Sequence record: NC_054920.1
DNA: 64,000 bases
Source: Escherichia phage vB_EcoM_G9062
Reading direction: 5' to 3' (one strand)
Position numbers and translations under genes: made by a program. Every line of letters begins with the position of its first letter. Position 1 is the first letter of the stretch. Below, piece after piece: positions 2,417-47,949 of this stretch. The notes beneath the pieces are model-generated. The model saw only the letters and a program-made list of their open reading frames with translations. It made no database searches and was not told the DNA's origin.

Positions 2417-2447
2417 AATTATACCACATCCTTGTGGTAAAGTAAAC
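2417..2447 (-). promoter_or_regulatory. T4-type early promoter
   Basis: minus-strand GTTTAC (2447-2442), 18 nt spacer, TATAAT-like (2423-2418). Confidence 0.5.
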
Positions 2448-4267
2448 TACTGGCTCATCCATTCTTTACGAAGGTCAGCATTATCTCCCATGAGCATTTC
2501 AAAAAGCTCTTTCCAGTTCTCAGGAAGTTTAACAACATCATATACTGGGTTTTGAATCATCTCACGATATTCAGATTTTTCCAAAGAGCCAAGTCCTTTA
2601 ATATAACGGATGCTATGTTTAGGTAGAGCATCTTTGGCACTCTCATATTCAGCGACTGTATAAAACCATTCTTGTTTTTTACCAATCTGAGCGATGATTA
2701 CAGGAGTTTTGACAAAACGAATTCGTCCTTGCTCAAACAATTCTGGCCAATTACTAAAAAATCCAAGCAGAGAAGGATAAATGCTTCCTAGACCATCATG
2801 GTCAGCATCAGTCATAATAGCAATATTATGATAATTCAAGTTTTCAGCTTTTTCACCGAGAACTAATCCAGTGATTGCGCAAATATCAAATAGTTCTTTG
2901 TTTTTAAGCATATCTGCATAAGACATACCCCAACTGTTGAGAACTTTACCGCGCAATGGATAACCACCGTGAAGTTCTTTATCACGAACATCAATAAGAT
3001 ATCCGATAGCCGAATCACCCTCAGTCAAGAAAAGAGTAGTGTCAGCATCTTTACCACAAAGATTCGCTTTGATATGTTTATGAACCTTAGCTTTAGAAGC
3101 CTTTTTAGCTGCTTTAGTTTCTGCTGCTTTTTCTGCCGCCAATTTACGAGCCAAAGCAGCTTCAATAATCGGCATTAGAATTGCTTCATTATTTAGAATA
3201 GCACGTGAAATCTTTTTAGCATCAAGCTGAATATGACTACGAATTTCGCCAAATGGAGAAGTCAAACGCTCTTTAGTTTGAGAATCAAATCGCATGTTTT
3301 TCATATCACGAACAAACATAACGATAGTCAAACATTCTTTAACACGCGCTTTAGTTACATCAATTTTGAACTTACGTTTGATTTGTGGAATAAGGTCTTC
3401 ACAAATATCATCCATAACACAGTCAATGTGATGGCCACCATTCTTAGTGTGAATGTTATTGACGTATGTTAATTGACGAAAACCATCCGGTGAACGACCA
3501 ACCGCAATAGAACAATTTTCTTGTTCTTGAACAATAGCATGCTCATCATATTGGCGTGCATATTTCTTAAAATTGCCCTGAACCTTTTTACCATTAAAGG
3601 TAAATTGAATATCAGGATAAACAACAGCAAGTGTCTGGAGACGATCTAATGTAATGTCAAGATAAACTTGAGATAATTCATTAGTTTCAAATGACATAAA
3701 ATCTGGAATGAAAGTAACACGAGTTCCTTTCCATTTTCCAGGAATAGTTTCCCATGATTTATTTTCCATGCCATTTGAACAACGAACTACAATATTATTT
3801 TGACCATCGCCAGTTTCACCGACAAACATCACAGAAAAAATGTTAGTTAAACTAGAACCAACACCATTCATACCACCGGTGACGCGTTCTTTATCATCAC
3901 CAAAGTTACCACCTGCTTTTGGAATAGTCCACGCAGCAACTGGACCAGGAATTTCTTCACCGGTAGGTGTTTTGACCATCGCTTGTGGAATACCACGACC
4001 GTTATCTTCAACTGTTACTTGATTGTTTTTAATAGTAACATTAATTTTATTTGCGAATTTAAACTTAGTACGAATACCTTCATCTACTGAGTTATCGATA
4101 ATTTCATCAATAAGCTTAACAAGACCAGGTACATACTGAACACTTTCCCATTTACCAAACAGAAAGCGCTCATGCATTTCATTAGCGGAAGAGCCAATGT
4201 ACATGCCGCTACGCTTTTTGATATGTTCAATATCGCTCAGAATTTTAATTTCATTCTTAATCATCAC
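2447..4267 (-). CDS. 39: DNA topoisomerase II large subunit, contiguous GyrB-like ATPase (606 aa)
   Basis: N-terminal GHKL ATPase motifs (GMYIGS, DNGRGIP), GyrB-like C-terminal half; single uninterrupted ORF. Confidence 0.9.
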   Translation of the reverse strand: MMIKNEIKILSDIEHIKKRSGMYIGSSANEMHERFLFGKWESVQYVPGLVKLIDEIIDNSVDEGIRTKFKFANKINVTIKNNQVTVEDNGRGIPQAMVKTPTGEEIPGPVAAWTIPKAGGNFGDDKERVTGGMNGVGSSLTNIFSVMFVGETGDGQNNIVVRCSNGMENKSWETIPGKWKGTRVTFIPDFMSFETNELSQVYLDITLDRLQTLAVVYPDIQFTFNGKKVQGNFKKYARQYDEHAIVQEQENCSIAVGRSPDGFRQLTYVNNIHTKNGGHHIDCVMDDICEDLIPQIKRKFKIDVTKARVKECLTIVMFVRDMKNMRFDSQTKERLTSPFGEIRSHIQLDAKKISRAILNNEAILMPIIEAALARKLAAEKAAETKAAKKASKAKVHKHIKANLCGKDADTTLFLTEGDSAIGYLIDVRDKELHGGYPLRGKVLNSWGMSYADMLKNKELFDICAITGLVLGEKAENLNYHNIAIMTDADHDGLGSIYPSLLGFFSNWPELFEQGRIRFVKTPVIIAQIGKKQEWFYTVAEYESAKDALPKHSIRYIKGLGSLEKSEYREMIQNPVYDVVKLPENWKELFEMLMGDNADLRKEWMSQ

Positions 4268-4316
4268 TTATCCTCGTTTGGTTTCGGGAATATTATACTC
4301 CGGTAATCATAAAGCT

Positions 4317-4334
4317 AAAGGCCCGAAGGCCTTT
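4317..4334 (-). terminator. intercistronic hairpin, C(UUCG)G loop on mRNA
   Basis: plus aaaggcccgaaggccttt; perfect stem with cgaa/uucg loop. Confidence 0.4.
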
Positions 4335-4603
4335 TATTTAAAACGAATAGTCGAATCCTTGAAGAATAGTCCAGAACATACTGTTCCTTCTACTTTCTGC
4401 CCAGTAGGTCCAATAGCACGAAATCCAGTATGTTGGAAATCATTTTCAGAACAACCGAACCAGTTATATCCAGTGATTTCAATATTAGTAAAACCGCTTG
4501 AAGACAAAACTTTGGTTGCATTATCAGCATCAGTACATCCTACTAAAGACACTGCTAATACTAATGCCGCGATAGAACGATTAATATATTTCATAATTTT
4601 CAC
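4334..4603 (-). CDS. small lipoprotein (89 aa)
   Basis: signal peptide with lipobox LVGC. Confidence 0.6.
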   Translation of the reverse strand: MKIMKYINRSIAALVLAVSLVGCTDADNATKVLSSSGFTNIEITGYNWFGCSENDFQHTGFRAIGPTGQKVEGTVCSGLFFKDSTIRFK

Positions 4604-4971
4604 TTAAATTTAATGGCTTGAAGAAGACTAATAATTCTCAAGCGACTTCCTTCATCTTTAACTGTAAAAGAAAGAGGGTCACCAGATTTCATAGTGATAG
4701 TGCATTCAAAAGCAAAACCTTCGGGAACTTCTTCGAAGAAGTCAAATTCTTCATCATAAATTAGAACATTACTCTGAAAACTGTGAAGAATTTTTCCGTC
4801 ATTTCCAGATGCTGTACTAATCATTGTAACATTATTACCTTTCATATCTTCAACGATAAATTCGCTTGTAGATATTACAGCATTAATAGAACCATTCCTA
4901 TAAATAGCAGAAAATAGATATTTCTTTTCTTCACCTTCGCGAATGCGATATTTCTTACCGATTTTAAACAT
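4600..4971 (-). CDS. hypothetical protein (123 aa)
   Basis: minus-strand ORF with overlapping stop/start to neighbours. Confidence 0.5.
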   Translation of the reverse strand: MFKIGKKYRIREGEEKKYLFSAIYRNGSINAVISTSEFIVEDMKGNNVTMISTASGNDGKILHSFQSNVLIYDEEFDFFEEVPEGFAFECTITMKSGDPLSFTVKDEGSRLRIISLLQAIKFK

Positions 4972-4973
4972 AA

Positions 4974-5150
4974 TTACCCTTTAAGTAAGTCGTAAAATCC
5001 GCCATTCACATGCTTAGGGGCAGAGACTAACCGAATAGCAATCCGATGACAATCAGGACATACATCAGTATCTCTTTCAGAAATTTTCTTGATTTTTTCG
5101 TATTCTTTTGCGCAGTCTTTTGATTGACATTTATAATCATAAAGCGGCAT
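4974..5150 (-). CDS. zinc-ribbon small protein (58 aa), not in ORF track
   Basis: my translation MPLYDYKCQSKDCAKEYEKIKKISERDTDVCPDCHRIAIRL..., CxxC...CxxC pattern, fills gap between 4971 and 5153. Confidence 0.45.
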   Translation of the reverse strand: MPLYDYKCQSKDCAKEYEKIKKISERDTDVCPDCHRIAIRLVSAPKHVNGGFYDLLKG

Positions 5151-5152
5151 AA

Positions 5153-5566
5153 TTATTCCTTAAAGTGAGCTTTCAACATCTGATACAAGGACCATGCCTG
5201 TTCATCATTTTCAATAGTAACTTTCATTACAGGGAATTTAGATTGATCAGTTATCGGTGCAGATTCTTCCTGCTCTTCAGCTGCCTGGTATGGATTTTCA
5301 ACTTCATTAAAGAATTCAGCTTCATTCGATGAAAGCCAAATAAAATCTTCATCCAAAATATCTTTACCAGAAGATAGTACTAAATTTCCAGCAAATGACA
5401 TAATTTTAATAGGACGCCCAAGAGCATCCACATCTAAAATTTTAAAAGGATGCATACCTAAACGGCGTGCATAGATTCCGTTATCAGTATGGTCTTTAAT
5501 AAAATTTTCTTGAGCTTGTTTATTTTTAAATTGATACCATTTATTAACTTCAAATTTAATAGCCAT
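5153..5566 (-). CDS. hypothetical protein (137 aa)
   Basis: minus-strand ORF, acidic C-terminal half. Confidence 0.5.
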
Positions 5567-5781
5567 TAATAAATTTCCTTCCAGTAAGTTGTACCATCTT
5601 CAGTGATTTCACGAAATACACCGTAAATTGGTTGTTTATCCCCAACCTTTTCATACACATAAACCGAAGTCAAGTGAGTAAACTTAGCAGTGTGTTCCTT
5701 TTGAACTACTACCAAATCTGGATCGAATAACACATCTTCAAATTCGTCATTAGTGCAGTTCTGAACAATTTTACGTTTCAT
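5566..5781 (-). CDS. hypothetical protein (71 aa)
   Basis: minus-strand ORF, start overlaps stop of upstream gene. Confidence 0.5.
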
Positions 5782-5880
5782 TACAATTTCCTCGTTAATT
5801 GAACATTGGAGCGATGCGTTTCAGAAGAGTAGCAGCACCTTTGGCAAATTTTCCATTTTATTCTCCAAATTATTTTCTAT

Positions 5881-12151: not shown

Positions 12152-12771
12152 TCAACTACCTCAATATCATACACTTTAAATGTTCCAAATGAATCGTGTA
12201 ATTTTTCTTTTGAAATAGAAGTTATTTTATACTTTCCAATTGGAATCATCCATTCTTGTTCACGTACAATCATCATTAAGTTATCAGTACGTTCTGAATC
12301 TAATCCATCAGTATCTTCATATGTATACTTAAATTCAGTATTAGGAGAAGAAAGTATAATATCGCTGATATGGTCAGAATAATTAAAAGCTTTATCAGTT
12401 TTTAAGCGAAATATTATTTCAGTGAAATACTCAACATAAGAAAAACCACATGCTGTGTGCAAACTAGTAGTAAATGAATCTACTCTGTTCGTTGAAAACA
12501 CTTCTCCGACTTGTAAATCTTTAATGAGTTCTTTTGTCGATTTTGATATACCACGATATAGCTGATAAGGCGATTTAGTTAAATGCTTTTTAACGATTTT
12601 ATTCAACTGCCGATGAAGAGCTTCATTCTTTTTGGCTTCCATACACTGCCAAAGAACTGACTGTTCAAAGTCAGTAAATTTTTCACATACCTTTTTATAC
12701 ATATCATATTGAAAATCAACGCTTTCAGCTTTTATAGATAACTGTTCAACATCTGCAAGATTAATAATCAT
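12148..12771 (-). CDS. modB: ADP-ribosyltransferase ModB (207 aa)
   Basis: 207 aa; ART motifs (YRGIS, FSTNR, EQEWMIP); paralog of ModA; ATGA overlap. Confidence 0.8.
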   Translation of the reverse strand: MIINLADVEQLSIKAESVDFQYDMYKKVCEKFTDFEQSVLWQCMEAKKNEALHRQLNKIVKKHLTKSPYQLYRGISKSTKELIKDLQVGEVFSTNRVDSFTTSLHTACGFSYVEYFTEIIFRLKTDKAFNYSDHISDIILSSPNTEFKYTYEDTDGLDSERTDNLMMIVREQEWMIPIGKYKITSISKEKLHDSFGTFKVYDIEVVE

Positions 12772-12796
12772 GATAGCCTCCGTATACTTCAGAAGC

Positions 12797-12827
12797 TATC
12801 ATATCATCGTTAGGAAGGAAAGTAAAC
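12797..12827 (-). promoter_or_regulatory. T4-type early promoter
   Basis: minus-strand GTTTAC (12827-12822), 17 nt spacer, TATGAT. Confidence 0.45.
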
Positions 12828-12838
12828 AACTTTTTGAA

Positions 12839-13021
12839 TTATTTTGCCCAGGGAGCCCAGGGCGGAGGGTCAAGATGGTATGAAGCTAGTTCTTCTAGAA
12901 GAGCATCTGGGGCTTCAATTCCATAATTCTGTAATACTATACGGTACTCTTTCTTATAATCACTAGAATCATTCTGGATATTCGTAGAATGATTATCTTC
13001 TAACATCTCAAATAAATCCAT
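12839..13021 (-). CDS. hypothetical protein (60 aa)
   Basis: minus-strand ORF; GC-rich 3' end. Confidence 0.45.
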   Translation of the reverse strand: MDLFEMLEDNHSTNIQNDSSDYKKEYRIVLQNYGIEAPDALLEELASYHLDPPPWAPWAK

Positions 13022-13029
13022 ATTAATTC

Positions 13030-13500
13030 CTAGCGATAAAAACCAAAATAACGATTAGCTTCAATAATCTTTCTTTCTTCTTCGGACATTCTCCAGCGTA
13101 GTCCAACATCAAAATGAGCCCAGACCATCTTAACAAATGCATTTATATCTTTAATATCTTCAATAATGAATGATTTACTTTTAGAAGGTTGACTCGCTAA
13201 TTTAACTTTATCGTCTTCAAACAGGTCAAAAAGACCATATTCATGGGCTCTTTTATAGCCTTTAATAGTTAAAGCTTCAGAAGAAGAAAAAGGTGAATCA
13301 GTATTCTGCAAAATATCTTCAGTATGCTTTATAATTAGAATAACATTTTCTGGATATTTTCTTTCTTTTATATCTTTAATTAAAATATCCGGATTTTCTG
13401 CTAAAGGAATAATTAATGAGCATTTTTTACCAAGAGTATTTACTGATTTACCTTCTTTAGACATAAATTCTATTGAATAATGTTTTGCTACTTCAATCAT
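13030..13500 (-). CDS. hypothetical protein (156 aa)
   Basis: minus-strand ORF; a further 49-aa ORF (about 13499-13648) appears coupled upstream. Confidence 0.5.
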
Positions 13501-13653
13501 GCGATTTCCTTTTGCCTACTAATGGACCGTCAGGAATTTTGTTTTCCTGGATATATTTCTCATTTTCTTCCATCATTTTACTACCGATTTTAAGAAGCAA
13601 ATCCATTGCTTCATTTGCTTTAGCTTTAGCCTCTTCTAATATCATATCTCTGT

Positions 13654-13857
13654 TCACGATTTATCCCCATAGATGTCTCTCATTAATTTAAGCGCTGAGC
13701 GTTCTAATTTCTTTTCTTTCTCAGCACTAATCATTGATTTCATCCATTCTTCCGATTCGTTCTGCATTTCTTTATTTGCTTGTTCAACCCAACCATCATC
13801 AATATACATCGAGTTTGGTCTATTGAACCATTCAAGCATCTTCTTCAGAGCTTTCAT
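13654..13857 (-). CDS. hypothetical protein (67 aa)
   Basis: minus-strand ORF. Confidence 0.45.
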
Positions 13858-14329
13858 TTGTTTTACCTAAAACAACAGTAGGAGCATCATCAAATTCATG
13901 AATTTTGAGCAAATTTGGATGTAAACTATTCCATACAGAAGAAATAAAGTATGATAAAGCATCTTCACTCGCAATTATAAATTTATTTCCTTTATCTATT
14001 TTCCAACTATATACTGAATCGTACGAATAAAAAGATAAAGGTTTATTATTATATTGTTCTGCGCTAACATTAATGTATTCTGATTTAGTAAATGCTTCAA
14101 TTGCTCTAAACGGAATATTTGGTACAGTTTCAATAATACCAATCTTTTTAAGTTTTATTTCAGCATCTTCTGGAACTGGCATTGAAACGAAATTTTCTAC
14201 GAGATACATTGGGTCACAATAACCCTTATCAATCATTACTGCTACGGTAATTGGAACGTCTTTAGCAAACGACATACTATTACTGCTAATATACATTTCA
14301 AACAAAATCGCTTCCATAATTTTCCTCAA
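13832..14329 (-). CDS. hypothetical protein (165 aa)
   Basis: minus-strand ORF. Confidence 0.5.
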
Positions 14330-14667
14330 TCACAAGATGTAGATGAACAACTAGAATCACAAGAACTTCCACATGAATCGCCTTCCCATACATGAACAGG
14401 AACATTAGTATCATATGAATCAGAACTAGACTGTGTATTCTGCGTATTAGATGATGTAGTAGGTGTTGACCAGCGCCAAGGATTTTTATAATATTCTTGG
14501 GCTTCTTCATAAGTCATAGTAACTGCTTCTACTGTTCCATCTCCCATATAAACATACTCAACTACAGTTAAAGGAAGGTAGTCATTTGAAATAGGAACTA
14601 CACCTTCCCCAGGAGTCGTAGAGAAAAAATCCGTAAAGAAACTTTTAAACCAATTAAAGATAAACAT
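14326..14667 (-). CDS. hypothetical protein (113 aa) with Cys/Ser-rich C-terminal tail
   Basis: C-terminus [20 protein letters not shown]; ATGA overlap. Confidence 0.5.
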
Positions 14668-14873
14668 TACAAAAAGCCTCTCTTGAATTCGACATGCTTT
14701 TCACCATAATCATATCGAATCTCTGCATTAAATTCGACAGAACCATCTGCGTACATCATAAATGAATGCACAACAACTTCTGTAGACCATGGCTGTAGTT
14801 CATATTTCTTCATTACATGCCGTGAAATGATAATATCTAAATCTTCATTTGGTTTAATCCAACGATTTAACAT
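14667..14873 (-). CDS. hypothetical protein (68 aa)
   Basis: minus-strand ORF directly downstream of an early promoter. Confidence 0.5.
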   Translation of the reverse strand: MLNRWIKPNEDLDIIISRHVMKKYELQPWSTEVVVHSFMMYADGSVEFNAEIRYDYGEKHVEFKRGFL

Positions 14874-14900
14874 AGTGCTCTCCTCTATAAGATAATTCTA

Positions 14901-14929
14901 TTATACCATACTCATTTTGGAAAGTAAAC
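14901..14929 (-). promoter_or_regulatory. T4-type early promoter
   Basis: minus-strand GTTTAC (14929-14924), 16 nt spacer, GTATAA. Confidence 0.5.
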
Positions 14930-14944
14930 CAGTAAAATGAAAAA

Positions 14945-14962
14945 GGACTCCCGAAGGAGTCC
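14945..14962 (-). terminator. hairpin downstream of soc, C(UUCG)G loop, followed by T-run on mRNA
   Basis: plus ggactcccgaaggagtcc flanked by A-run. Confidence 0.55.
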
Positions 14963-14968
14963 TTGAAT

Positions 14969-15214
14969 TTATTCACCAGTTACTTTCCACAAATCTTCAT
15001 TTGCAGCAATCCATTCAGTACGTTGATTTTCTTCATATACTGTAGAATATGCTGCTTTTTCTGAAGGGAATGTCTGGTAATGAGCACCAGAAATTTTGTG
15101 AACGTCAGAATAAAGAGGGAAAGCTACGGAAATTTCCTTTCCTTCAATTTTCTTATTTCCATCTAATTTCTGCTCAAATGTTTTAATATTAACATAACCG
15201 CGAGTACTAGCCAT
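14969..15214 (-). CDS. soc: small outer capsid protein Soc (81 aa)
   Basis: MASTRGYVNIKTFEQKLDGNKK... matches T4 Soc as I recall it. Confidence 0.9.
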   Translation of the reverse strand: MASTRGYVNIKTFEQKLDGNKKIEGKEISVAFPLYSDVHKISGAHYQTFPSEKAAYSTVYEENQRTEWIAANEDLWKVTGE

Positions 15215-15230
15215 GTAATTCTCCTTTTAT

Positions 15231-15440
15231 TTAAATTACATGATTATTTATAATAAATTCTCGCGGAACGTTAAAATACCCGATTTTAGTTAATATAACA
15301 ACATCGCCGTTAATAATTACCAGAGAATAATCTTCTGGAGCATTAAATTTCCAATGGGCTCTAATATTATATCCATCAGAACCAAATGCTCGAGTAGCTG
15401 GTCTCCCAGCTTTTTGCCATGCGTAGAAATCAAATTTCAT
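15231..15440 (-). CDS. hypothetical protein (69 aa)
   Basis: minus-strand ORF between soc and 56, where T4 carries segF. Confidence 0.45.
   Translation of the reverse strand: MKFDFYAWQKAGRPATRAFGSDGYNIRAHWKFNAPEDYSLVIINGDVVILTKIGYFNVPREFIINNHVI
15245..15252 (-). promoter_or_regulatory. late promoter TATAAATA upstream of soc
   Basis: plus tatttata is minus TATAAATA, about 30 nt upstream of soc ATG. Confidence 0.55.
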
Positions 15441-15631
15441 TTTGAATGCTCTATAATTAATTTTAAAGCTTCTTCACTGACAAAAATTTCGTCAGGACCT
15501 TCTATAACTTCAACCATACGAAGTTGATTAGTTAAGAGCTCACATACGAGCTCCTTGTTATAATCTTTAAATAGCTGGTCAATACGTTTCTTATGGGCTT
15601 TCTTGAGCTGACGTTTATTTAAACGAGCCAT
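15437..15631 (-). CDS. hypothetical protein (64 aa)
   Basis: ATGA overlap with preceding ORF. Confidence 0.45.
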   Translation of the reverse strand: MARLNKRQLKKAHKKRIDQLFKDYNKELVCELLTNQLRMVEVIEGPDEIFVSEEALKLIIEHSK

Positions 15632-16164
15632 TAATAGCCTCGGTCTTGACGAGCGAAGTTTTCAGCATTTTTCAGATAATAAAGTTTAAAGATTTCCTCA
15701 GCTGACATTCCAAGAGCAATGAATTTATTCATGAAAAAGTGAAATTGATCAATCAGTTCAAATTTAATTTCAAGTTGATCTTCAGGAGATAAATCTTGAA
15801 TTTTCTTGGATTGCATTTCAGAATAACGTTTCTTCCAAGGTTTCCATACAGCAGAAGCTTCTTTTTCGCCATTACTCATACCGCCAAGAGAAGTATATAA
15901 CTCGCGGGTTTCATCTGCGATATAATCGTCTTGGTTTCGCAACCAAGCAAGAACTTCTCCTGCAGTTTCAAGTGAATCAGGATGACGATTTGTTTCTGGT
16001 TTATCATTAGCCAAACGAATCTGTAAATGCCGCTGCATGTCAAGCATAACCTGCAGTGGGTCAATATTGTGCATAATATTCTCAGCATATGCACGATTTG
16101 CTTTATCAACACCTTCAATCAAATGAGCACATTCATTAAAGTGAGCCATTATTTTTCCTTTCAA
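15631..16164 (-). CDS. 56: dCTP pyrophosphatase gp56
   Basis: size and position match T4 gp56; likely true start at 16149 (MAHFNE) after SD AAAGGA. Confidence 0.75.
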   Translation of the reverse strand: MKGKIMAHFNECAHLIEGVDKANRAYAENIMHNIDPLQVMLDMQRHLQIRLANDKPETNRHPDSLETAGEVLAWLRNQDDYIADETRELYTSLGGMSNGEKEASAVWKPWKKRYSEMQSKKIQDLSPEDQLEIKFELIDQFHFFMNKFIALGMSAEEIFKLYYLKNAENFARQDRGY

Positions 16165-16183
16165 TTCATTAATAAGTTAAATA

Positions 16184-16209
16184 ATTATATCATTTGAATA
16201 TGTAAGCAA
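16184..16209 (-). promoter_or_regulatory. middle promoter (MotA box) for gene 56
   Basis: minus-strand TTGCTTACA (MotA box), 11-12 nt spacer, TATAAT. Confidence 0.5.
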
Positions 16210-17549
<1,340 letters not shown>

Positions 17550-17573
17550 TATATCATCCTCAGCAATTTATTT

Positions 17574-17604
17574 TATAATACCATAACAAGCTGAGAAAGT
17601 AAAC
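17574..17604 (-). promoter_or_regulatory. T4-type early promoter
   Basis: minus-strand GTTTAC (17604-17599), 18 nt spacer, TATTATAA. Confidence 0.5.
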
Positions 17605-17648
17605 AAATTTATGAAATTTGTGATAAATATTAATTTAAAGGAGGACAT

Positions 17649-17849
17649 ATGGCACAAAAATTAATGGCACTTGTTAATGCCATCAAAGGTAATAAGAAAC
17701 GTATAGCTTTTACTATTTCTGCTATGGTAGGAATTTTACTCTGGAACTTTATTTTATCACCAATTGCAATTGCGCATGGTGTTAATATTCCAGTAGTTAC
17801 TCTTGATACATTCGTAGATCTAGCATTTGCTTTAGTTGGGTTAATTTAA
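17649..17849 (+). CDS. small hydrophobic membrane protein (66 aa), only plus-strand gene called
   Basis: strong SD AAAGGAGGA 5 nt before ATG; two predicted hydrophobic helices; near-consensus late box GATAAATA about 18 nt upstream. Confidence 0.5.
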   Translation: MAQKLMALVNAIKGNKKRIAFTISAMVGILLWNFILSPIAIAHGVNIPVVTLDTFVDLAFALVGLI

Positions 17850-18874
17850 ATCTTGGCATATTTAGATAACCGCATTTTAGCCATTAACCCCTGGGCAATA
17901 TTATTTTTCATATATTCCATAATTTGTTCAGGGGTTGCACCTTCCTTTCTAATCATATCATTAACATCTTTTGATTTCCAGGGAGATTTATCCCAAAACA
18001 TAACCCTTTCTCCTACATCAACTAATTTAGTCATTCGCTTGATAGTGTCAGGGTGACGAGGTTCATTATCTAAAACCCACACTCGTCTATCTTTAAATGG
18101 AACAACTTCTAGGTCTAATTGACCACCCGTAATAGCTATACCATTTTCAATAAAAAGTGAATCTATAGGTCCTTCTAGAACATATACATCACCATCTTTA
18201 ACTCGTTCGACTCCATATATTTTTGTTGCCTCAGGATAAGCTTTGATGGTGATATATTTTTGAGGAGCATCTTTCTTTAATGCACGTCCTTGAAAAGACT
18301 CAGCTTTTCCATTAGCATTATAAATTGGAATAACAAGACGAGGCTCAGAAATTTCCTTTTTGTATGTTCCCGGTGCTATGCTATTAACTAATTTAGGCCA
18401 TTCGGTTGTAAACCAAAGATATTTCCATTTATCCTTTGGAATACAACGAGCTTTTACATATTTTATAATTGGATGGTCTTCCGCCAGTTTATCTAATCTA
18501 ACACATGACGGAAGAGATTTAATTATTTTCTTCTCAGGATGTTTAGGAAGTTCTTTAGGTTTTTCTACTGGACGACTTTTACCTTTTTCTTTTCTTATTT
18601 CAAAGATATACTCACGATATAAATCAGGTTCAAACTCCTTTAAATATATTCCGATTGGCGCATGATAGTTACAGTTATAACAATGAATATTTCCTTCATT
18701 ATTATCACCATAATACCATCCACGGGCTTTATTTTGGTCGGTTTTTGAATCTCCACAAACTGGGCATCTAAACCGTAATTTAAAAGTTGAACTATTATTT
18801 ACTTGTGTGAATTTAGGTAAATGAGCTAATGTACGATATGCAAACTCATTATCAATCCAAGGTATTGATGACAT
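17846..18874 (-). CDS. 61: DNA primase gp61 (342 aa)
   Basis: 342 aa; N-terminal zinc ribbon CPVCGDS...CYNCNYH. Confidence 0.9.
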   Translation of the reverse strand: MSSIPWIDNEFAYRTLAHLPKFTQVNNSSTFKLRFRCPVCGDSKTDQNKARGWYYGDNNEGNIHCYNCNYHAPIGIYLKEFEPDLYREYIFEIRKEKGKSRPVEKPKELPKHPEKKIIKSLPSCVRLDKLAEDHPIIKYVKARCIPKDKWKYLWFTTEWPKLVNSIAPGTYKKEISEPRLVIPIYNANGKAESFQGRALKKDAPQKYITIKAYPEATKIYGVERVKDGDVYVLEGPIDSLFIENGIAITGGQLDLEVVPFKDRRVWVLDNEPRHPDTIKRMTKLVDVGERVMFWDKSPWKSKDVNDMIRKEGATPEQIMEYMKNNIAQGLMAKMRLSKYAKI

Positions 18875-18877
18875 TCT

Positions 18878-19042
18878 TTACTCTTCTTTTTCTTTAGATT
18901 CCTCTTTTTTCTTTTTAGGAATCTGTTCAGGACCTTTATTTACTACAGCACCTGACGTTGTTCCAGTGGAGATATTTTCAGGATTACCACCTGAATCTCC
19001 AGCTACCATATCTTCTTTAATAAATTCTTTATATGTTTTCAT
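18878..19042 (-). CDS. small acidic/lysine-rich protein (54 aa), not in ORF track
   Basis: my translation MKTYKEFIKEDMVAGDSGGNPEN...; sits where T4 has 61.1. Confidence 0.45.
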   Translation of the reverse strand: MKTYKEFIKEDMVAGDSGGNPENISTGTTSGAVVNKGPEQIPKKKKEESKEKEE

Positions 19043-19043
19043 A

Positions 19044-19670
19044 TTAACCTCTATTCATAAAAGCATTAAAAATTTGGTCATCAATAGAAACATCTACTTT
19101 AGACTGTTTTTCTGATGGTAATTCATATCCACATATTACAATTTTGTGATCAATATCAAAATACACAGAAGCAATATGATTAATGATGTTTTCAGTAAAG
19201 TCTAAATCAACATCAATATCTTTTTGACCACAGCCCAAAGGATAAATAATGCGAGTAATTCGATTATCTTTAACAAAGATTCCACCGACATACTCTGTGC
19301 TGCGTTTAAAGTCTACACGCCAACGAAATGAAAAATATTCAGGCTCTTTATGAGCTCTGCTCATAGGACACAACGAGTAACTAGAATAAGAGATGTCAAA
19401 TCCTACGCCTTCAATATGAGCCAAAGTATCATGATTAAACCAATTATAATCGTACGCCAAATCCATTAGATTATAATATGTAAAAGGCACCGGATTAACG
19501 TCATTAATCACAAGCATGTAATTAGCAACTGCTATAATTTCATTGTTTTTAACGAATACAAACCGTGATTGATGCGAATGACCTGGACCCGCGTTTTCAC
19601 GATTAATGATATAACACTGGGCACCTTTATATTTGTATGTATCTTTGCACTTGTGCATTTGATAGAGCAT
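19044..19670 (-). CDS. hypothetical protein (208 aa), 61.2 position
   Basis: minus-strand ORF. Confidence 0.55.
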   Translation of the reverse strand: MLYQMHKCKDTYKYKGAQCYIINRENAGPGHSHQSRFVFVKNNEIIAVANYMLVINDVNPVPFTYYNLMDLAYDYNWFNHDTLAHIEGVGFDISYSSYSLCPMSRAHKEPEYFSFRWRVDFKRSTEYVGGIFVKDNRITRIIYPLGCGQKDIDVDLDFTENIINHIASVYFDIDHKIVICGYELPSEKQSKVDVSIDDQIFNAFMNRG

Positions 19671-19963
19671 TATTCACCTACCACTTCAGCGATGATATTT
19701 TTATTATTAAAGTTTTTATCGCAATACAGAACATAATTATACTGCATTACACCACCAGACTTAAGTTGTTTTTGCACTTTAGCTTTCATTTCAGGACGAT
19801 CGCGCTCAACGATATTCATAATATCCGCTTCAATTTGAGTTTCAACTTCAGTCTGATCTGCAGTCATAGACCATTCGCACAAATCTTTGTCATAACCCGC
19901 CATAGCAGGCTGAGCAGCGCAAGAAGATAAAGCAAAAATTGCAGCAAAGATAAATTTTTTCAT
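19670..19963 (-). CDS. sp: periplasmic Spackle protein (97 aa)
   Basis: 97 aa with cleavable signal peptide; position between 61 and 41. Confidence 0.75.
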   Translation of the reverse strand: MKKFIFAAIFALSSCAAQPAMAGYDKDLCEWSMTADQTEVETQIEADIMNIVERDRPEMKAKVQKQLKSGGVMQYNYVLYCDKNFNNKNIIAEVVGE

Positions 19964-20023
19964 GATAATCTCCTCAGTAGTTTATGTTTATATAGTATCT
20001 CAATTTCCAATAAAAGTAAACAG

Positions 20024-20281
20024 TTATTTTAAAACTTCTGCATAATCACATGTTACAAACTGTTTCTCTAACTTGGCGATTTTACGAAAGTATCTTTTGC
20101 ATTGACGAATCTGTCGCTTTGTAGGGCGCACAGCAAACTTAATAAATTCCACTCGACCAAATGGAGGGCTTTCTTCTGCCGGAATATCTAATACTAATTC
20201 CCACGTATCTGCAATAAGTGCTTTGAATTGAGTATTTTTCCTGACATTATACGGAGTAGGTTTAAATAAAACGATATGCAT
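20024..20281 (-). CDS. hypothetical protein (85 aa)
   Basis: minus-strand ORF. Confidence 0.5.
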   Translation of the reverse strand: MHIVLFKPTPYNVRKNTQFKALIADTWELVLDIPAEESPPFGRVEFIKFAVRPTKRQIRQCKRYFRKIAKLEKQFVTCDYAEVLK

Positions 20282-20282
20282 A

Positions 20283-20465
20283 TTATCCTCGGCAATCTAC
20301 TTCACATACTTTCTTGTCATCAATGAAAGCTTTAACTAATGCTTTATTAACTTCAGCATACTGAGTAGTAACCCATTGAACATCATCTTTCATCATTGCG
20401 GTTTCTTTAGTAAACATGCTTTCATTCTTAAACCACCCCATAAAAACTACCTTTACCAATTCCAT
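20283..20465 (-). CDS. dmd: Dmd antitoxin (60 aa)
   Basis: 60 aa MELVKVVFMGWFKNESMF... matches T4 Dmd as I recall it. Confidence 0.8.
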   Translation of the reverse strand: MELVKVVFMGWFKNESMFTKETAMMKDDVQWVTTQYAEVNKALVKAFIDDKKVCEVDCRG

Positions 20466-20494
20466 AACAATCTCCTCATTTAACCAACAAGACT

Positions 20495-20525
20495 ACTATA
20501 CCATAGTCTTGTCAGCTTGTAAACT
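20495..20525 (-). promoter_or_regulatory. T4-type early promoter
   Basis: minus-strand GTTTACA (20525-20519), spacer, GTATAG. Confidence 0.5.
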
Positions 20526-21951
20526 AAAATTTTAATTCATTCGCCAAAGCATCTAACTGAGCTCGAGTGGATTCATTTCTTTGATAGCGATTCTGCTCAG
20601 CCTGAATCTGTTGTGAACCTACTACTTCATTCACTTCAGTTGGAGTAGAATCTTGATCAATTTCTACCCATTTTTGATTTCCTTTTTGAACACCCATCAA
20701 AAACTTATTCCATTTATTCTTATCACCATATCGTGATTTGATTTGCTTAATGAGTTGTTGTTCAGCAGCTGCTAGCTCCTCGGTTTCAATGACCGCAAGC
20801 ATAAAATCGGCTGTTGCTGGAAGACCAGCAGATTCTGCGATATCGCTCATGTTAACATCGGAAGAGTCCCAAGCTTGTTTGCCGACCTGCGCTGCAGTCC
20901 AAAGAACAGTTTCGGTTTCAACAGCAAGAGCACGTAATTCCTCAGCAATGGCTTTAACAGTTGTGTAACTATTTTCTGAGTAAACTCTAATGCGGCAAGA
21001 TTTACAAATACCCAGATAGTCGACAATAATGATTGTTGGAACAAAATTCTTCTTGAGCTTCAATTCGTTTAAAAGTGATCGAAATGTATTAGCGTCTGCT
21101 CCACCAGTAGGATACTGTTTAACGATTAAACGACCAAGAGTAGATTTCTCACGCCATTTTTCCATTTTTCCTTTATACTCAGCGTAAGAAATATGCCCAT
21201 CATCAATGTCATCAAGAGAAACATCAAGCATATTAGCATCAATACGCTTAGCACAGACTTCTTCTGCCATTTCCATGGAAATGTAAAGAACATTATGTCC
21301 GAGCTGCAAATAATCTGCTGCCAATGAACACAATCCTAATGACTTACCAACGTTAACGCCAGCCATTAAAACGTTCAGTGTTCCAGTCTCAGCTCCGCCT
21401 TTAGTAATTTTGTTCAGAATTCTGAGTTTAAATGGAACCTTACGAGCTTTATTCATATAAGATAGCCAACGTGCTTCATAGTCATCCATCCAATCATGGC
21501 CAACGTAGCTATCAAATGAAATTGATAATGCTTGGCGCATGATGTCAGGAATAGCACCTACATCTGGCATTTTCTTATTTCGTTTTTCTGGAGGAAGCTC
21601 AGCATTAGTTTGAATTTCGATTATTTTAGACGTAGCATTAAACATCGCCCTTTGCTGAACATATTTTTCTGTTTCTTTTATTAACCAACTGTGGTCTTCC
21701 GGAGAATCAGCTAGTTTTGAAATAAGTGTTTTTACACCAGAATATTCTGTTTCAGTAAATGAACTATTTTCTAATGCAACATTTAACGCATTAATAGATG
21801 GAACGCTATGATACTCATTGACATGAGATTTAATTAATTTGAATGTATTTTTAGCTGGACCACTTTCAAAATATTCTGAATCCATATATGGCCAAACTTT
21901 TGAAAAATAAGCTTGATCAAATATGAGATGAGAAAGAATAATTTCTACCAC
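20524..21951 (-). CDS. 41: replicative DNA helicase gp41, DnaB-like (475 aa)
   Basis: 475 aa; Walker A GVNVGKS. Confidence 0.9.
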   Translation of the reverse strand: MVEIILSHLIFDQAYFSKVWPYMDSEYFESGPAKNTFKLIKSHVNEYHSVPSINALNVALENSSFTETEYSGVKTLISKLADSPEDHSWLIKETEKYVQQRAMFNATSKIIEIQTNAELPPEKRNKKMPDVGAIPDIMRQALSISFDSYVGHDWMDDYEARWLSYMNKARKVPFKLRILNKITKGGAETGTLNVLMAGVNVGKSLGLCSLAADYLQLGHNVLYISMEMAEEVCAKRIDANMLDVSLDDIDDGHISYAEYKGKMEKWREKSTLGRLIVKQYPTGGADANTFRSLLNELKLKKNFVPTIIIVDYLGICKSCRIRVYSENSYTTVKAIAEELRALAVETETVLWTAAQVGKQAWDSSDVNMSDIAESAGLPATADFMLAVIETEELAAAEQQLIKQIKSRYGDKNKWNKFLMGVQKGNQKWVEIDQDSTPTEVNEVVGSQQIQAEQNRYQRNESTRAQLDALANELKF

Positions 21952-21960
21952 ACTTACTCC

Positions 21961-22323
21961 TTAAAAGAATTTAAACTTTTTCTTTGACCTTTTATTAAAT
22001 GCATCTTGTAGTTGCATTGTAATACATTTTTCTACATGAGGAGCTAACTCAGCTTTTCTTTCTTGGTCAAGAACAGCAAAGTCCATTACGACTTTTCCAT
22101 CAACCCAATCTAATTTTGTCACATACACAATGTGTGTAGAACCATCTTCTAGTTTAATGACAATCTCCTGGATAACATTTTCCATGGCAGATTTAATTAT
22201 CTTAAGAGATTCATTAAAAAGACGTTCTTTTCTTTCTTCTTCCCCCTCCGAAGAGGGGGATTCATCGATAATTTCTAGATCTAAGTCTAAATCATCTTTA
22301 TTCATTAAATTCTTCCATATCAC
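21961..22323 (-). CDS. 40: gp40-like protein (120 aa)
   Basis: size and position between 41 and uvsX. Confidence 0.55.
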   Translation of the reverse strand: MIWKNLMNKDDLDLDLEIIDESPSSEGEEERKERLFNESLKIIKSAMENVIQEIVIKLEDGSTHIVYVTKLDWVDGKVVMDFAVLDQERKAELAPHVEKCITMQLQDAFNKRSKKKFKFF

Positions 22324-23479
22324 TTAACTGTTCGAGGTCAGTTTCTAAATCAGCAGCTGATTTACTTTTACTTTCTGGAGATTTAAATTTTTCAACCTTT
22401 GAGTTAATCAATTCATCAACTTCAGCTTCAACAATTTCATTACTATCAATAGCACCTAACTGATAAGCACGTTTAATAGCATCTCGGAATGGTTGATGCT
22501 TAAATAAAGGACCCCAGAATGTAGTGCAATTGGTATCTTTTGCACGCCAAGATTTTTCTTCGCGAATCATCTCGCCGGTTTCTTCATCAAGAAATTCACG
22601 AGCATACCAGCCATTTTTAGGTTTTACCACAAATCCTAATTCAAGAGCCATATCTAACAATCCAGAATAAGGATCGATGCCACCGTCAAATTTAACATCA
22701 ATAAAGAATTTACTTTTTTCTTTAACGGTACGAGATTTTTCTACATTTAGAACAAATTGATACCCCTGAAGATCAGAACCATCTTTAATCTGGCGCTTAC
22801 CGATAATGAATACAGTATCAGCCGAATACATTACGCCTGTACCACCTGTCATCACGGTTTTACTAAACATTTCAATTGTTTCAATTGTATGGTTAACCGC
22901 AACACATGGAATGTTTTTAATACTAAAATAAGGAGTAACAATACGGAATAATGACTTCAGTGATTTAGCACGAGTCATATCTGCCACAGATTTTTCATTC
23001 AAGGCATCTTCCGTTTCTTTCTTAGAAGCCATATTACCAATTGAGTCGATGAATACTATAACCTTTTCACCACGCTCAATAGCTTCAAGCTGATTCACCA
23101 TATCAATTTTCAGCTGTTCAACTGATTGAATTGGCGTATGAATTACACGTTCCGGGTCAACTCCCATGGATCGCAAATAAGCTGGAGTAATACCAAATTC
23201 GCTATCATAGAATAGACAAACCGCGTCAGGATATTTGTTCAAATATGCCGCAACCATAGTCAAAGACATATTTGATTTAAAGTGTTTAGAAGGCCCTGCG
23301 AAAATAGTTAAACCAGACTGCATACCGCCATCAATCGCACCAGAAATAGCAATATTAAGCATTGGAATTTTTGTACGAATTACATCCTTTTCATTAAAGA
23401 ATTTAGATGTAGTCAGTTCAGCAGTCATTTTAGAAGTGGAAGCTTTAATCAAACGGGATTTTAAATCTGCAATAGACAT
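22298..23479 (-). CDS. uvsX: UvsX recombinase, RecA-like (393 aa)
   Basis: N-terminus MSIADLKSRLIKASTSKMTAELTTSKFFNEKD as T4 UvsX; RecA-fold motifs. Confidence 0.9.
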   Translation of the reverse strand: MSIADLKSRLIKASTSKMTAELTTSKFFNEKDVIRTKIPMLNIAISGAIDGGMQSGLTIFAGPSKHFKSNMSLTMVAAYLNKYPDAVCLFYDSEFGITPAYLRSMGVDPERVIHTPIQSVEQLKIDMVNQLEAIERGEKVIVFIDSIGNMASKKETEDALNEKSVADMTRAKSLKSLFRIVTPYFSIKNIPCVAVNHTIETIEMFSKTVMTGGTGVMYSADTVFIIGKRQIKDGSDLQGYQFVLNVEKSRTVKEKSKFFIDVKFDGGIDPYSGLLDMALELGFVVKPKNGWYAREFLDEETGEMIREEKSWRAKDTNCTTFWGPLFKHQPFRDAIKRAYQLGAIDSNEIVEAEVDELINSKVEKFKSPESKSKSAADLETDLEQLSDMEEFNE

Positions 23480-23556
23480 TCATTTTTTCCATAGGCATCA
23501 TTATATTTTCCTCACTGGTTAAAGATAGAGTAATTATAACACAATAAATTTAGGCA

Positions 23557-24405
23557 TTAATCAACTGCTATTGGATGAATAGCATTAAACTTATGAAATG
23601 CTTCTGATTTTTCTTTACGCGAAACGCACATGCGAAGAACCTTTAATGGCTCGTCTTCTTCACCCAACGATTTTCGTTTTTCAATATTAGAAGTTTTCCA
23701 ACGAGCTTGCTCTGGAAACTCTCTATTGATTTGCTCAAGCGCTCTATTATGTTTAGAATTACTACGAATTGAACTACACCCGCCAGGAGCTTGTGCTTTT
23801 CCAGATACAACTAGATATTTGAACAAGGCCAAATGCGGATAACCTTGATTAATTAAATTGAGAAATGCATACATATCTTCGCATAAATCAATTTTTCCAT
23901 ACCCAATTTGTTCTGTCGTAAGTTTTCCGAGGTCATACCATGTATTCGTGAATCCATATGAATTTTCACGATAATTACCCCAAGATGAAGTAATTTTAAA
24001 AATTGATAGACGAGCATGACCGTGATAATACCCGCAATCCATGGCATCTTCAACATATTGAATCAATTCATAGAACTGTTCACGAGTTAATTGATTAATT
24101 TTATCTACGCGCCGTTTATCGTCTCTCTTTCGTATTGAACTCATACGGATAGTAGTATCATCGTCAATCATCCAGATTCGTTGACCTGCATACATATCAG
24201 TAATTGCTTTACGAGTACCGGCAATTCCATTAACATCATCAGGAATAGTTACAATTTTAGCTCTAGACCCATAGGCATCATAATAAGCTTTTTCTTCGTG
24301 TTCACGCACTATAATATGCGGTTCATAATCAGTCGGAAACATATCAAGGGCAGAAACTGCCCCGACACGTTGATAACTTGGAATTACGAATTGAATCATT
24401 TCCAC
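23557..24405 (-). CDS. GT-A-fold glycosyltransferase (282 aa) at the beta-gt locus
   Basis: N-terminal FVIPSYQR strand and IDDD (DxD) motif typical of GT2-like enzymes; lies between uvsX and 42. Confidence 0.6.
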   Translation of the reverse strand: MEMIQFVIPSYQRVGAVSALDMFPTDYEPHIIVREHEEKAYYDAYGSRAKIVTIPDDVNGIAGTRKAITDMYAGQRIWMIDDDTTIRMSSIRKRDDKRRVDKINQLTREQFYELIQYVEDAMDCGYYHGHARLSIFKITSSWGNYRENSYGFTNTWYDLGKLTTEQIGYGKIDLCEDMYAFLNLINQGYPHLALFKYLVVSGKAQAPGGCSSIRSNSKHNRALEQINREFPEQARWKTSNIEKRKSLGEEDEPLKVLRMCVSRKEKSEAFHKFNAIHPIAVD

Positions 24406-25136
24406 TCACCTTTATAGTCTTTTTTCACAATATGAGTTTCGCCAGTATTCCACCAATGATCAACCAAATAAAAATGACGAGAATATACATGAAGACTTCC
24501 AACATTCCATATAATAGAACCTGCTTTATACTGACGAGTTGAATCGCCTGCATTCAAATCAGATACTAATTTATCTAATACGTATTTTTGCCATGCATAA
24601 TCATTACGGAATCCGAAGACCACGTCATTTGAGCGCATGCTTACTACCGCATTGACTTTCTTATCACGAATCAAGTACTGTACTGTATTAGTACACATGA
24701 AATCTGACATACCATCTTTATTGTAGTCAAATTGCATGGATGGACGAGTATAAATCATGATACCACGTCGAGAATCAGGATTTTGACCAAGTTCAGCTAA
24801 ACACATATCATACTGGGCATAGTTATCTTCTGACCAGATAGCCCAACCATAATTCGAGTTAATTTCGCCTTTAGAAGATGCTACCTGCTGCCAAATCTTT
24901 GGTGTTTCACCTGGAATATCTTTAACAAACAAGCTCTTAGATTTATACCATTCAAGTTCACGCTGAATGTATTCATCATTAAGAGCGCCAAAAATAAACG
25001 GTTCATCTGCTACAAATGATGCGCCAATAATTTCAATAGTTTTAACACCAGTTTTATCAACTACGAAATCTTTTTCTTTTAATGCAAGCCCCAAATGAAG
25101 ACGGATTTCTTCAACTGTCATAGAGTCACTAATCAT
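24396..25136 (-). CDS. 42: dCMP hydroxymethylase gp42 (246 aa)
   Basis: 246 aa; thymidylate-synthase-like. Confidence 0.9.
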   Translation of the reverse strand: MISDSMTVEEIRLHLGLALKEKDFVVDKTGVKTIEIIGASFVADEPFIFGALNDEYIQRELEWYKSKSLFVKDIPGETPKIWQQVASSKGEINSNYGWAIWSEDNYAQYDMCLAELGQNPDSRRGIMIYTRPSMQFDYNKDGMSDFMCTNTVQYLIRDKKVNAVVSMRSNDVVFGFRNDYAWQKYVLDKLVSDLNAGDSTRQYKAGSIIWNVGSLHVYSRHFYLVDHWWNTGETHIVKKDYKGEWK

Positions 25137-25143
25137 TTAAACC

Positions 25144-25293
25144 TCAATTGATACATTCATATTTAACTTGTAACAGTAATAAACTCCAACCTAAAATAAT
25201 AGTTGGAATCATAAGAGGAACCGTTACACTATAGTATATACTTATTATAATCATCAAGATTAAAAGCAACACTGCTATAATTTTGCTTTTCAT
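25144..25293 (-). CDS. small membrane peptide (49 aa), not in ORF track
   Basis: my translation MKSKIIAVLLLILMIIISIYY...; ATG overlaps imm stop (ATGA). Confidence 0.4.
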   Translation of the reverse strand: MKSKIIAVLLLILMIIISIYYSVTVPLMIPTIILGWSLLLLQVKYECIN

Positions 25294-25541
25294 TCCTTCT
25301 CTCTGATGATAATTACCTGATTTGGTTGTGCAGACTTTTTAGTTTCACCCGCAATTGACCAAATAAATGTAATAAACCAACCAATAATTGACCAGTTAAA
25401 CAGTAAAGATGTGAAAAAGATTCCTACTGTCGATTTTGACCCACGCATCAAAGCAATAAACCATGGAAGCATGTATATAATAATAGCCAACACGCCTGAA
25501 ACTAAAACCATAAAAATTGAACCTGCTACTAAAGTTTCCAT
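25290..25541 (-). CDS. imm: superinfection immunity membrane protein Imm (83 aa)
   Basis: 83 aa, two hydrophobic helices, position between 43 and 42. Confidence 0.85.
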   Translation of the reverse strand: METLVAGSIFMVLVSGVLAIIIYMLPWFIALMRGSKSTVGIFFTSLLFNWSIIGWFITFIWSIAGETKKSAQPNQVIIIREKE

Positions 25542-25548
25542 GTTTTCC

Positions 25549-25929
25549 TCACTTAGTCAAATTTTTTACACATGAATTATAAGAATTCACTACATACTCC
25601 ATCGGAGCATTTTTACCGGTACGCCATTGGTAATTATTAGCCCAATTTGCCCAAAGCTCGGCGCAGTAGTTTTCAATTTTTTCTTCGCGTGTAATTACAT
25701 CAGAATTACGATATGCTTGAGCAGATTCATCTGGACGAATAGCCTCGTCAAAATTCGCCTGCATTTGTTCTACTGTCTGTTTTGGAGCTTCTTTATAACA
25801 CTTGACATTAGGATTATAAAACTTGCTTGAACAGTTTACAATTTTTCCTACATCAGACTGATTTACTACCGGTCCTTGAGCTACACAACCAGTAAGACCT
25901 AATGCAATAACCAAAATAGCGATTTTCAT
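25549..25929 (-). CDS. lipoprotein (126 aa)
   Basis: signal peptide with lipobox LTGC. Confidence 0.6.
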   Translation of the reverse strand: MKIAILVIALGLTGCVAQGPVVNQSDVGKIVNCSSKFYNPNVKCYKEAPKQTVEQMQANFDEAIRPDESAQAYRNSDVITREEKIENYCAELWANWANNYQWRTGKNAPMEYVVNSYNSCVKNLTK

Positions 25930-25939
25930 AATAATTTCC

Positions 25940-26176
25940 TCAAATGCAAGTAGTAATTACTCCAGTAGTGCTTATGCAGGTATTACCCATTTGCACACCT
26001 AAAGATCCATTTGTATTCACATGAAGATTATCATCAATTTTAACTGATATTTTACCATTAGTGTGAATAACAGTGCTAGATTCAATCACAGGTTGAGTAT
26101 CATTTTCAACACTAACAAATGGAACTGCTGCTAATGCAACTAAACAAACTGCTAAGCATCCCATAACAATTTTCAT
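25940..26176 (-). CDS. small secreted protein (about 78 aa)
   Basis: likely start MKIVMGCLAVCLVALAA at 26176 after SD GGAG; the longer track ORF runs into the promoter. Confidence 0.5.
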   Translation of the reverse strand: MKIVMGCLAVCLVALAAVPFVSVENDTQPVIESSTVIHTNGKISVKIDDNLHVNTNGSLGVQMGNTCISTTGVITTCI

Positions 26177-26212: not shown

Positions 26213-26243
26213 TATAGTACCATGGAAGAACATTCTTGTAAAC
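26213..26243 (-). promoter_or_regulatory. T4-type early promoter with conserved leader
   Basis: minus-strand GTTTAC (26243-26238), 16 nt spacer, GGTACTATAC, then conserved AACTATCAAC leader. Confidence 0.55.
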
Positions 26244-26330
26244 AGTTTTGTGAAAATTTTTTAGGGAATTCTAAATGTCCAGAATCATCTGTTTTTCATA
26301 AGTATAGATTTATATTACTTGTATGAAAAA

Positions 26331-26346
26331 GGAACCCGGAGGTCCC
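26331..26346 (-). terminator. hairpin downstream of gene 43
   Basis: plus ggaacccggaggtccc; stem with one G-U pair. Confidence 0.3.
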
Positions 26347-26359
26347 TAGATTTATTCTA

Positions 26360-30296: not shown

Positions 30297-30297
30297 A

Positions 30298-44915: not shown

Positions 44916-44954
44916 AATAAACCCTTACCTTAAATAGATAAGGGTATTTATTAT

Positions 44955-47897: not shown

Positions 47898-47949
47898 ATT
47901 CTTCTCACTTGGTTAATGGTTTATACTCCGAGCCATCCTTGGCTTTAAA

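Follow-up and report, generated by a model that had tools for sequence, protein, structure and literature searches.

Five short minus-strand genes of Escherichia phage vB_EcoM_G9062, among them a 39.2 (nwgI) ortholog, belong to the catalogued gene complement of T4-like phages

GroEL and the phage co-chaperonin gp31 fold the major capsid protein of bacteriophage T4. In T4 head maturation, the protease gp21 cuts gp23 at its LTE motif, after Glu65. The product of T4 gene 39.2 was reportedly named NwgI by Ang and Georgopoulos in 2012 (Genetics 190:989). Two papers that summarize this work describe T4 39.2 as a 58-aa peptide that modulates GroES/GroEL (PMC5153855, PMC4396842); according to the first, deletion of 39.2 completely blocks T4 growth on specific groEL mutants, and gp39.2 shifts GroEL to an open conformation that is able to bind either the host or the phage co-chaperonin (PMC5153855). 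For the internal proteins, a decapeptide serves as the capsid targeting sequence, in which residues 4 and 7 set targeting and residues 8 and 10 set cleavage by gp21 (PMC9026906).

Genome-wide data on T4 infection touch three of the small genes considered here. 39.2 and 61.1 are seen only as early RNA, their proteins being undetected in the infected-cell proteome, and the ModA.4 protein is detected by mass spectrometry in infected cells and classed as "middle" (PMC9697503, Table S2); the literature on T4 describes modA.4 as early-transcribed. CRISPRi-ART knock-down of T4 39.2, modA.4, and 61.1 was scored "Not Fit" in all three cases, meaning no laboratory fitness effect (PMC11879866, supplement), so these genes are dispensable under those conditions.

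The window analyzed here is a stretch of 64,000 nt from Escherichia phage vB_EcoM_G9062 (NC_054920.1). By its sequence it is a Tequatrovirus arm that runs from rIIA to about 64 kb, and a mosaic of known T4-like sequences: positions 4300-5800 match phage vB_EcoM_G4498 at 100% identity, and positions 12500-26000 share 98.3% identity with phage APTC-EC-2A. The minus strand carries nearly every gene in the window. The initial annotation drew attention to five small open reading frames (ORFs) in gaps of its ORF track; all five are present and all lie on the minus strand. Its coordinates are exact for four of the five and a few bases off for the remaining one, given as a 49-aa ORF at about 13499-13648, which spans 13493-13657 from a GTG start or 13493-13645 from an ATG start (minus strand). 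The ORFs had been called unannotated, which is true of that track and of nothing else: they looked unannotated because the track stopped at 60 aa, and in public records all five are annotated (39.2, modA.4, 61.1, and 42.1 in the RB14, JS98, and T4T records; the fifth, a DUF7279 gene, in JS98 and RB69-type phages). A 60-aa floor conceals many real T-even genes, and the window has more than these five.

Three other gap ORFs, which the initial annotation did not list, also lie on the minus strand. One, at 36437-36577, encodes a hydrophobic protein of 46 aa and is 100% identical to the corresponding RB14 frame; RB14 annotates a 46-aa gene 47.1, with which this ORF is equated by size and gene order. 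The other two, at 56692-56865 and 59255-59428, would encode 57 aa each.

The five ORFs adjoin their neighbors as the initial annotation had described: 39.2 lies 2 nt after the goF stop, 61.1 lies 1 nt after the 61.2 stop, 42.1 and modA.4 overlap the stops of imm and srh as ATGA and GTGA, respectively, and the DUF7279 gene lies 36 nt after the pin stop. Lengths of just 49-58 codons, two T4 products (gp39.2 and gp61.1) missed by proteomics, and laboratory knock-downs without a phenotype are all compatible with chance open frames in AT-rich spacer that are never translated. Shuffled gaps, however, almost never yield such ORFs. When each inter-gene gap was shuffled 20,000 times and a same-strand ORF of at least the real length was scored, the frequency was 0.0037 for 39.2, 0.0060 for 42.1, 0.0024 for 61.1, 0.0007 for modA.4, and 0.022 for the DUF7279 gene (RB32ORF078c-type).

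Codon alignments and dN/dS values were obtained for the window against G4498, T4, RB14, JS98 (Dhakavirus), and Shf125875 (Mosigvirus). Substitutions in the five ORFs fall preferentially at third codon positions. The dN/dS ratio is about 0.03-0.4, and values of about 0.6-0.8 are confined to the pairs that carry least information; by gene, it is 0.03-0.15 for 39.2, about 0.2-0.4 for 42.1 (informative pairs), 0-0.28 for 61.1, 0.03-0.19 for modA.4, and 0.08-0.59 for the DUF7279 gene. These values, mostly far below 1, reflect purifying selection and argue strongly against chance frames. The ORFs hold their frame, length, and position in Tequatrovirus, Dhakavirus, Mosigvirus, and Winklervirus alike, including in comparisons whose synonymous sites are saturated. 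Among 50,697 phage records searched with tblastn, 39.2 is found in 874, 42.1 in 746, 61.1 in 1395, modA.4 in 586, and the DUF7279 gene in 356, and the matches include other genera at 40-80% identity.

Each of the five ORFs also matches an existing PHROG family (E = 1e-11 to 1e-36), and two reach Pfam cut-offs, 39.2 with PF09723 and the DUF7279 gene with PF23945; none has a match among the PADLOC defence models. Word-indexed protein searches each returned only 10-17 close homologs, so no deep alignments could be drawn from them. With the small ORFs matching curated or clustered protein families, with genetics and biochemistry published for 39.2, and with ModA.4 detected by mass spectrometry in T4, the notion of untranslated chance frames has next to no probability left and is already refuted for practical purposes. 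The earlier view of the ORFs as real genes thus holds, on the strength of frame and position kept in four Tevenvirinae genera, low dN/dS, and matches to family models.

The five ORFs are conserved T4-like phage genes that are already known, none of them new. Taken as a whole, the explanation that we hold with high confidence is that they are real, translated accessory early genes, all catalogued, in long minus-strand early transcription units in which none of the starts lies farther than about 36 nt from the stop of the gene upstream, and that the lead ORF is the ortholog of T4 NwgI. Results obtained with T4, namely GroEL modulation, early transcription, detection of ModA.4, and dispensability, would extend to the G9062 genes by analogy. 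As a discovery this is of small importance, since the genes are catalogued members of the T4 family and the lead gene has had a published function since 2012.

Gene 39.2 (nwgI; 4974-5150, minus strand) encodes 58 aa from an ATG start, with AAGGA 6-10 nt upstream, and is annotated in T4, RB14, JS98, and RB69-type phages. Its product has an FmdB-type zinc ribbon, scoring 42.4 bits against PF09723 (Zn_ribbon_8; cut-off 34.4) and 43.2 bits against TIGR02605 (CxxC_CxxC_SSSS, FmdB family zinc ribbon; cut-off 31.3). The initial description of a zinc-ribbon protein is borne out by both models, but the motif it gave, CxxC...CxxC, has to be amended to Cx4C...CxxC. The cysteines are Cys8, Cys13, Cys31, and Cys34; all four are conserved in JS98, Shf125875, and RB14 and probably bind zinc. 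They are followed by a conserved C-terminal tail, SAPKHVNGGFYDLL.

Over residues 1-58 the protein is 96.6% identical to T4T gp39.2, from which it differs at two residues; identity to T4 NC_000866 is 91% over residues 1-44, after which NC_000866 is frameshifted. In the window, G4498, T4, RB14, Shf125875, and JS98, 39.2 always lies directly downstream of goF and before 39.1/39 on the same strand. By sequence and by this position, the ORF at 4974-5150 is gene 39.2, the ortholog of T4 NwgI. A PDB sequence search with gp39.2 gave no match at E ≤ 1, and an AlphaFold2 model built from an alignment of 5 close sequences only (mean pLDDT 56.7, all-helix) was discarded. Inside 39.2, a plus-strand match resembling a promoter (5124-5153) is within chance expectation for the region and was likewise set aside.

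The surroundings of 39.2 differ in some respects from those in T4. Between 39.1 and 39.2 the window has a 123-aa gene, RB32ORF005c (4600-4971, minus strand), that T4 lacks. The large subunit of the topoisomerase is encoded by a single 606-aa gene (2447-4267, minus strand) in which 60 and 39 are fused as in RB14; the T4 split, mobA, and the gene 60 bypass are all missing from it.

If the activity of the T4 protein holds for its ortholog, gp39.2 would be a small early zinc-ribbon protein that tunes host GroEL. It would push GroEL toward its open form, the one competent to bind a co-chaperonin, for example host GroES, and on certain groEL mutant hosts growth of the phage would depend on it, as it does for T4. 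PHROG and RefSeq use a different label, "FmdB-like transcriptional regulator", under which gp39.2 would be a DNA-binding transcription regulator and not a chaperonin modulator. The label agrees with the historical description of PF09723 and TIGR02605 as "putative regulatory protein FmdB" and with the place of 39.2 in an operon beside motB, cef, and goF, whose action is on transcription or RNA; it is, however, an inherited family name with no experiment on any phage member behind it, and beyond the ribbon gp39.2 has no recognizable DNA-binding domain. The sole experimental work on the T4 protein points to GroEL/GroES (PMC5153855, PMC4396842), and direct binding to GroEL has reportedly been seen in T4. 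A regulatory function in place of chaperonin modulation is therefore very unlikely, and GroEL modulation is the preferred reading for gp39.2.

Gene 42.1 (25144-25293, minus strand), of the RB69ORF054c family, encodes 49 aa and is annotated in RB14 and T4T. Its product matches phrog_3610 over residues 3-49 (E = 9.5e-26) and is 86-98% identical to the RB14 and T4 sequences. It is strongly hydrophobic (GRAVY 1.61), each end carries lysines, and a conserved P-x-MIPT break interrupts the sequence midway; these features together suggest a two-helix hairpin that probably resides in the inner membrane. The conserved motif as a whole is P-x-MIPT...GW...Q-x-KY-x-C-[IF]-N. A scan of IMG/VR for 42.1 gave only 5 near-identical loci, and the selection analysis was hence done on annotated genomes of other genera.

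The 42.1 start overlaps the imm TGA as ATGA in the window and also in T4, RB14, and T4T, and in JS98 the homolog is 24 nt downstream of imm; Imm and gp42.1 are both small and hydrophobic. From such an arrangement gp42.1 could be imagined as a functional partner of the superinfection-immunity protein Imm, made in a fixed ratio to it through the ATGA overlap and acting jointly with it in the inner membrane. In Mosigvirus Shf125875, however, imm has moved beside sp while the 42.1 homolog remains downstream of gene 43, where it overlaps (ATGA) the stop of an RB69ORF055c-type gene of about 210 aa (29953-30728). The homolog in Winklervirus CBH8 and Gravdalen overlaps (ATGA) a gene of about 210 aa annotated as arabinose-5-phosphate isomerase (1824-2593 of the inspected stretch); no imm gene is annotated in the 5-kb stretch inspected in these two phages. 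The Winklervirus isomerase gene adjoins other sugar-metabolism genes.

Because the Mosigvirus and Winklervirus homologs overlap other genes, the linkage to imm is lineage-specific, and the conserved trait of 42.1 is its position downstream of gene 43. The initial annotation was right that the peptide is hydrophobic and that its ATG sits on the imm stop, but coupling to imm as a conserved property fails in Mosigvirus and Winklervirus. A partnership with Imm is on this evidence unlikely; a role of gp42.1 with Imm is possible but unsupported, and the reading that we prefer for gp42.1 is that of a probable inner-membrane hairpin encoded downstream of gene 43.

Both 39.2 and 42.1 are affected by the T4 reference record NC_000866. 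At 5650-5840 of this record, a single additional T behind codon 44 of 39.2 produces a stop after codon 45; the gene is consequently listed at 45 aa, with the conserved tail displaced to a different frame. The 58-aa frame is intact in T4T, RB14, JS98, and the window. Gene 42.1 is intact at 26227-26376 of NC_000866, with one amino-acid difference from the window, but is unannotated there. The omission is not confined to this record: in a spread sample of 40 rows of the tblastn matches, 14 of the 26 full-length (Tequatrovirus-type) matches to 42.1 have no 42.1 annotation and list only imm. The genome-wide proteomic and knock-down data on T4 never assayed 42.1 because they are built on NC_000866, and for the same reason the genome-wide T4 studies targeted a mis-sized 39.2.

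Gene modA.4 lies between srh and modA.3 (minus strand) and is annotated in T4, RB14, and JS98. With the GTG start (13655-13657), which overlaps the srh TGA, the gene at 13493-13657 encodes 54 aa; with the ATG start, the gene at 13493-13645 encodes 50 aa. T4, RB14, and G4498 have ATG at the codon that is GTG in the window, and JS98 modA.4 starts at the methionine four codons downstream. The product matches phrog_2681 (E = 1.7e-36), is predicted to be helical, and has a conserved C-terminal motif, IPDGPLVGK.

The ORF at 44957-45133 (minus strand), between pin and gene 49, encodes a basic protein (58 aa, pI 10.2) that is homologous to RB32ORF078c/RB69ORF087c and belongs to DUF7279, with 62.7 bits against PF23945 over residues 7-56 (cut-off 24.5) and E = 3.4e-34 against phrog_3272. 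JS98 (orf76) and Shf125875 (47897-48067) have the gene in the same position as in the window, directly upstream (in the direction of transcription) of gene 49; it is absent from T4 and RB14. Of the AlphaFold2 models, one reached a pLDDT of 81.7, with three strands and a C-terminal helix, and the other four reached 52-63. A Foldseek search with the DUF7279 model yielded no significant PDB match (best E = 0.27), and its BFVD matches were all uncharacterized phage proteins, which gave no functional lead.

The DUF7279 gene and pin are connected by repeats. A direct repeat of 65 nt has one copy at the 3' end of the DUF7279 gene (44940-45004) and the other at the 3' end of pin (45153-45217), both on the minus strand; the copies are 82% identical and 213 nt apart. 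There is also an exact 23-nt repeat (45145-45167 and 45221-45243), and the DUF7279 protein and Pin share their last 15-16 residues nearly unchanged (MIRQYKRLH.MFYNT). Recombination between the repeats would delete exactly the 213 nt that are missing in T4 and RB14 and would so produce their order of pin followed directly by gene 49. An origin of the ORF by duplication and decay of the pin 3' end was considered and is ruled out: the N-terminal 42 residues of its product persist in JS98 and in RB69-type phages, where full-length pin is missing, and comparison with JS98 gives a dN/dS of 0.08. The window carries the DUF7279 gene and full-length pin together, whereas T4 and RB14 have only pin and Mosigvirus has only the DUF7279 gene. 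JS98 has a second DUF7279 member, orf29 (16951-17172; 71.4 bits), in its 61.1-sp region, and DUF7279 paralogs are thus present at different hyperplastic loci.

Gene 61.1 (18878-19042, minus strand) encodes 54 aa, is preceded by GAGG, adjoins the primase gene 61, and is annotated in T4, RB14, and JS98. Its product matches phrog_1823 over the full length (E = 7e-34). The initial annotation called it an acidic protein of 54 aa; the length stands, but the protein is only mildly acidic, with 11 D/E against 10 K/R and a pI of 5.5, and is better described as highly charged.

Two stretches of gp61.1 resemble T4 head proteins. Its N-terminus, MKTYKEFIKE, is identical at 8 of 10 positions to MKTYQEFIAE of T4 IPII and IPIII and at 9 of 10 to the JS98 IPIII leader MKTYKEFIAE, and it retains all four residues that determine targeting (4 and 7) and processing (8 and 10) in the internal-protein decapeptide (PMC9026906). 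Residues 2-38 align with residues 57-93 of gp23 at 43% identity, and the aligned gp23 stretch includes the LTE motif (residues 63-65). On gp23, a profile that combines the window gp61.1 with 19 homologs reaches 27.3 bits, compared with at most 7.4 bits in 2000 shuffles. UniRef labels some gp61.1 homologs "major capsid domain-containing protein", and the long RB69-type gp61.1 has L-F-E directly before the conserved core.

These likenesses suggest, tentatively, that gp61.1 is a small internal head peptide, in which the decapeptide would target the protein to the capsid and gp21 would cut after Glu10 to leave a 44-residue remainder resembling the N-terminal arm of mature gp23. Such a cut would give a semi-tryptic peptide beginning at Asp11, DMVAGDSGGNPENISTGTTSGAVVNK. 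Against this stand the protein's absence from the proteome of T4-infected cells (PMC9697503, Table S2) and the drifted leader of JS98 gp61.1, MKSFKEVMNE, which is identical to the JS98 internal-protein leaders at only 5 of 10 positions. The classification of the gene as early also counts against an internal head peptide, yet that table gives the same class to the transcripts of ipII and ipIII. A literature search, outside which much of the older T4 literature falls, found no report of gp61.1 in T4 heads or virions and no paper tying 61.1 to the capsid targeting sequence; gp61.1 is therefore not classed here among the internal proteins.

With these points weighed together, an internal head peptide is a possibility to which we give clearly less than even credence. 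In its fuller form, held just as tentatively, gp61.1 would be a capsid-targeted micro-protein whose gp21-released 44-residue peptide reproduces the opening ~28 residues of mature gp23. This peptide could stay inside the head until its injection along with the DNA, or could stand in for the gp23 N-terminal arm as a mimic or decoy. Of everything described here, only the resemblance of gp61.1 to the capsid targeting sequence and to gp23 is possibly new, and earlier authors may have remarked on it; it is offered as a hypothesis, not as a result. For 61.1, likeness both to the targeting decapeptide and to the region where gp23 is cleaved supplies a hypothesis that is cheap as well as specific.

Compared with the described systems, gp39.2 agrees with T4 NwgI in length (58 aa), in position after goF, in its four cysteines, and in its C-terminal tail. 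As in the FmdB family, its N-terminus begins with Y-x-Y-x-C and its cysteines form two pairs, but its first pair is Cx4C and not the CxxC of that family. gp61.1 is like T4 IPII and IPIII in having the leader decapeptide, including an I/L-x-E cleavage motif, and like the gp23 maturation site in a shared stretch of 37 residues. In contrast to the internal proteins, gp61.1 is far smaller and is encoded in the primase region rather than at an ip locus, and beyond the leader it is similar to gp23 and to none of the internal proteins.
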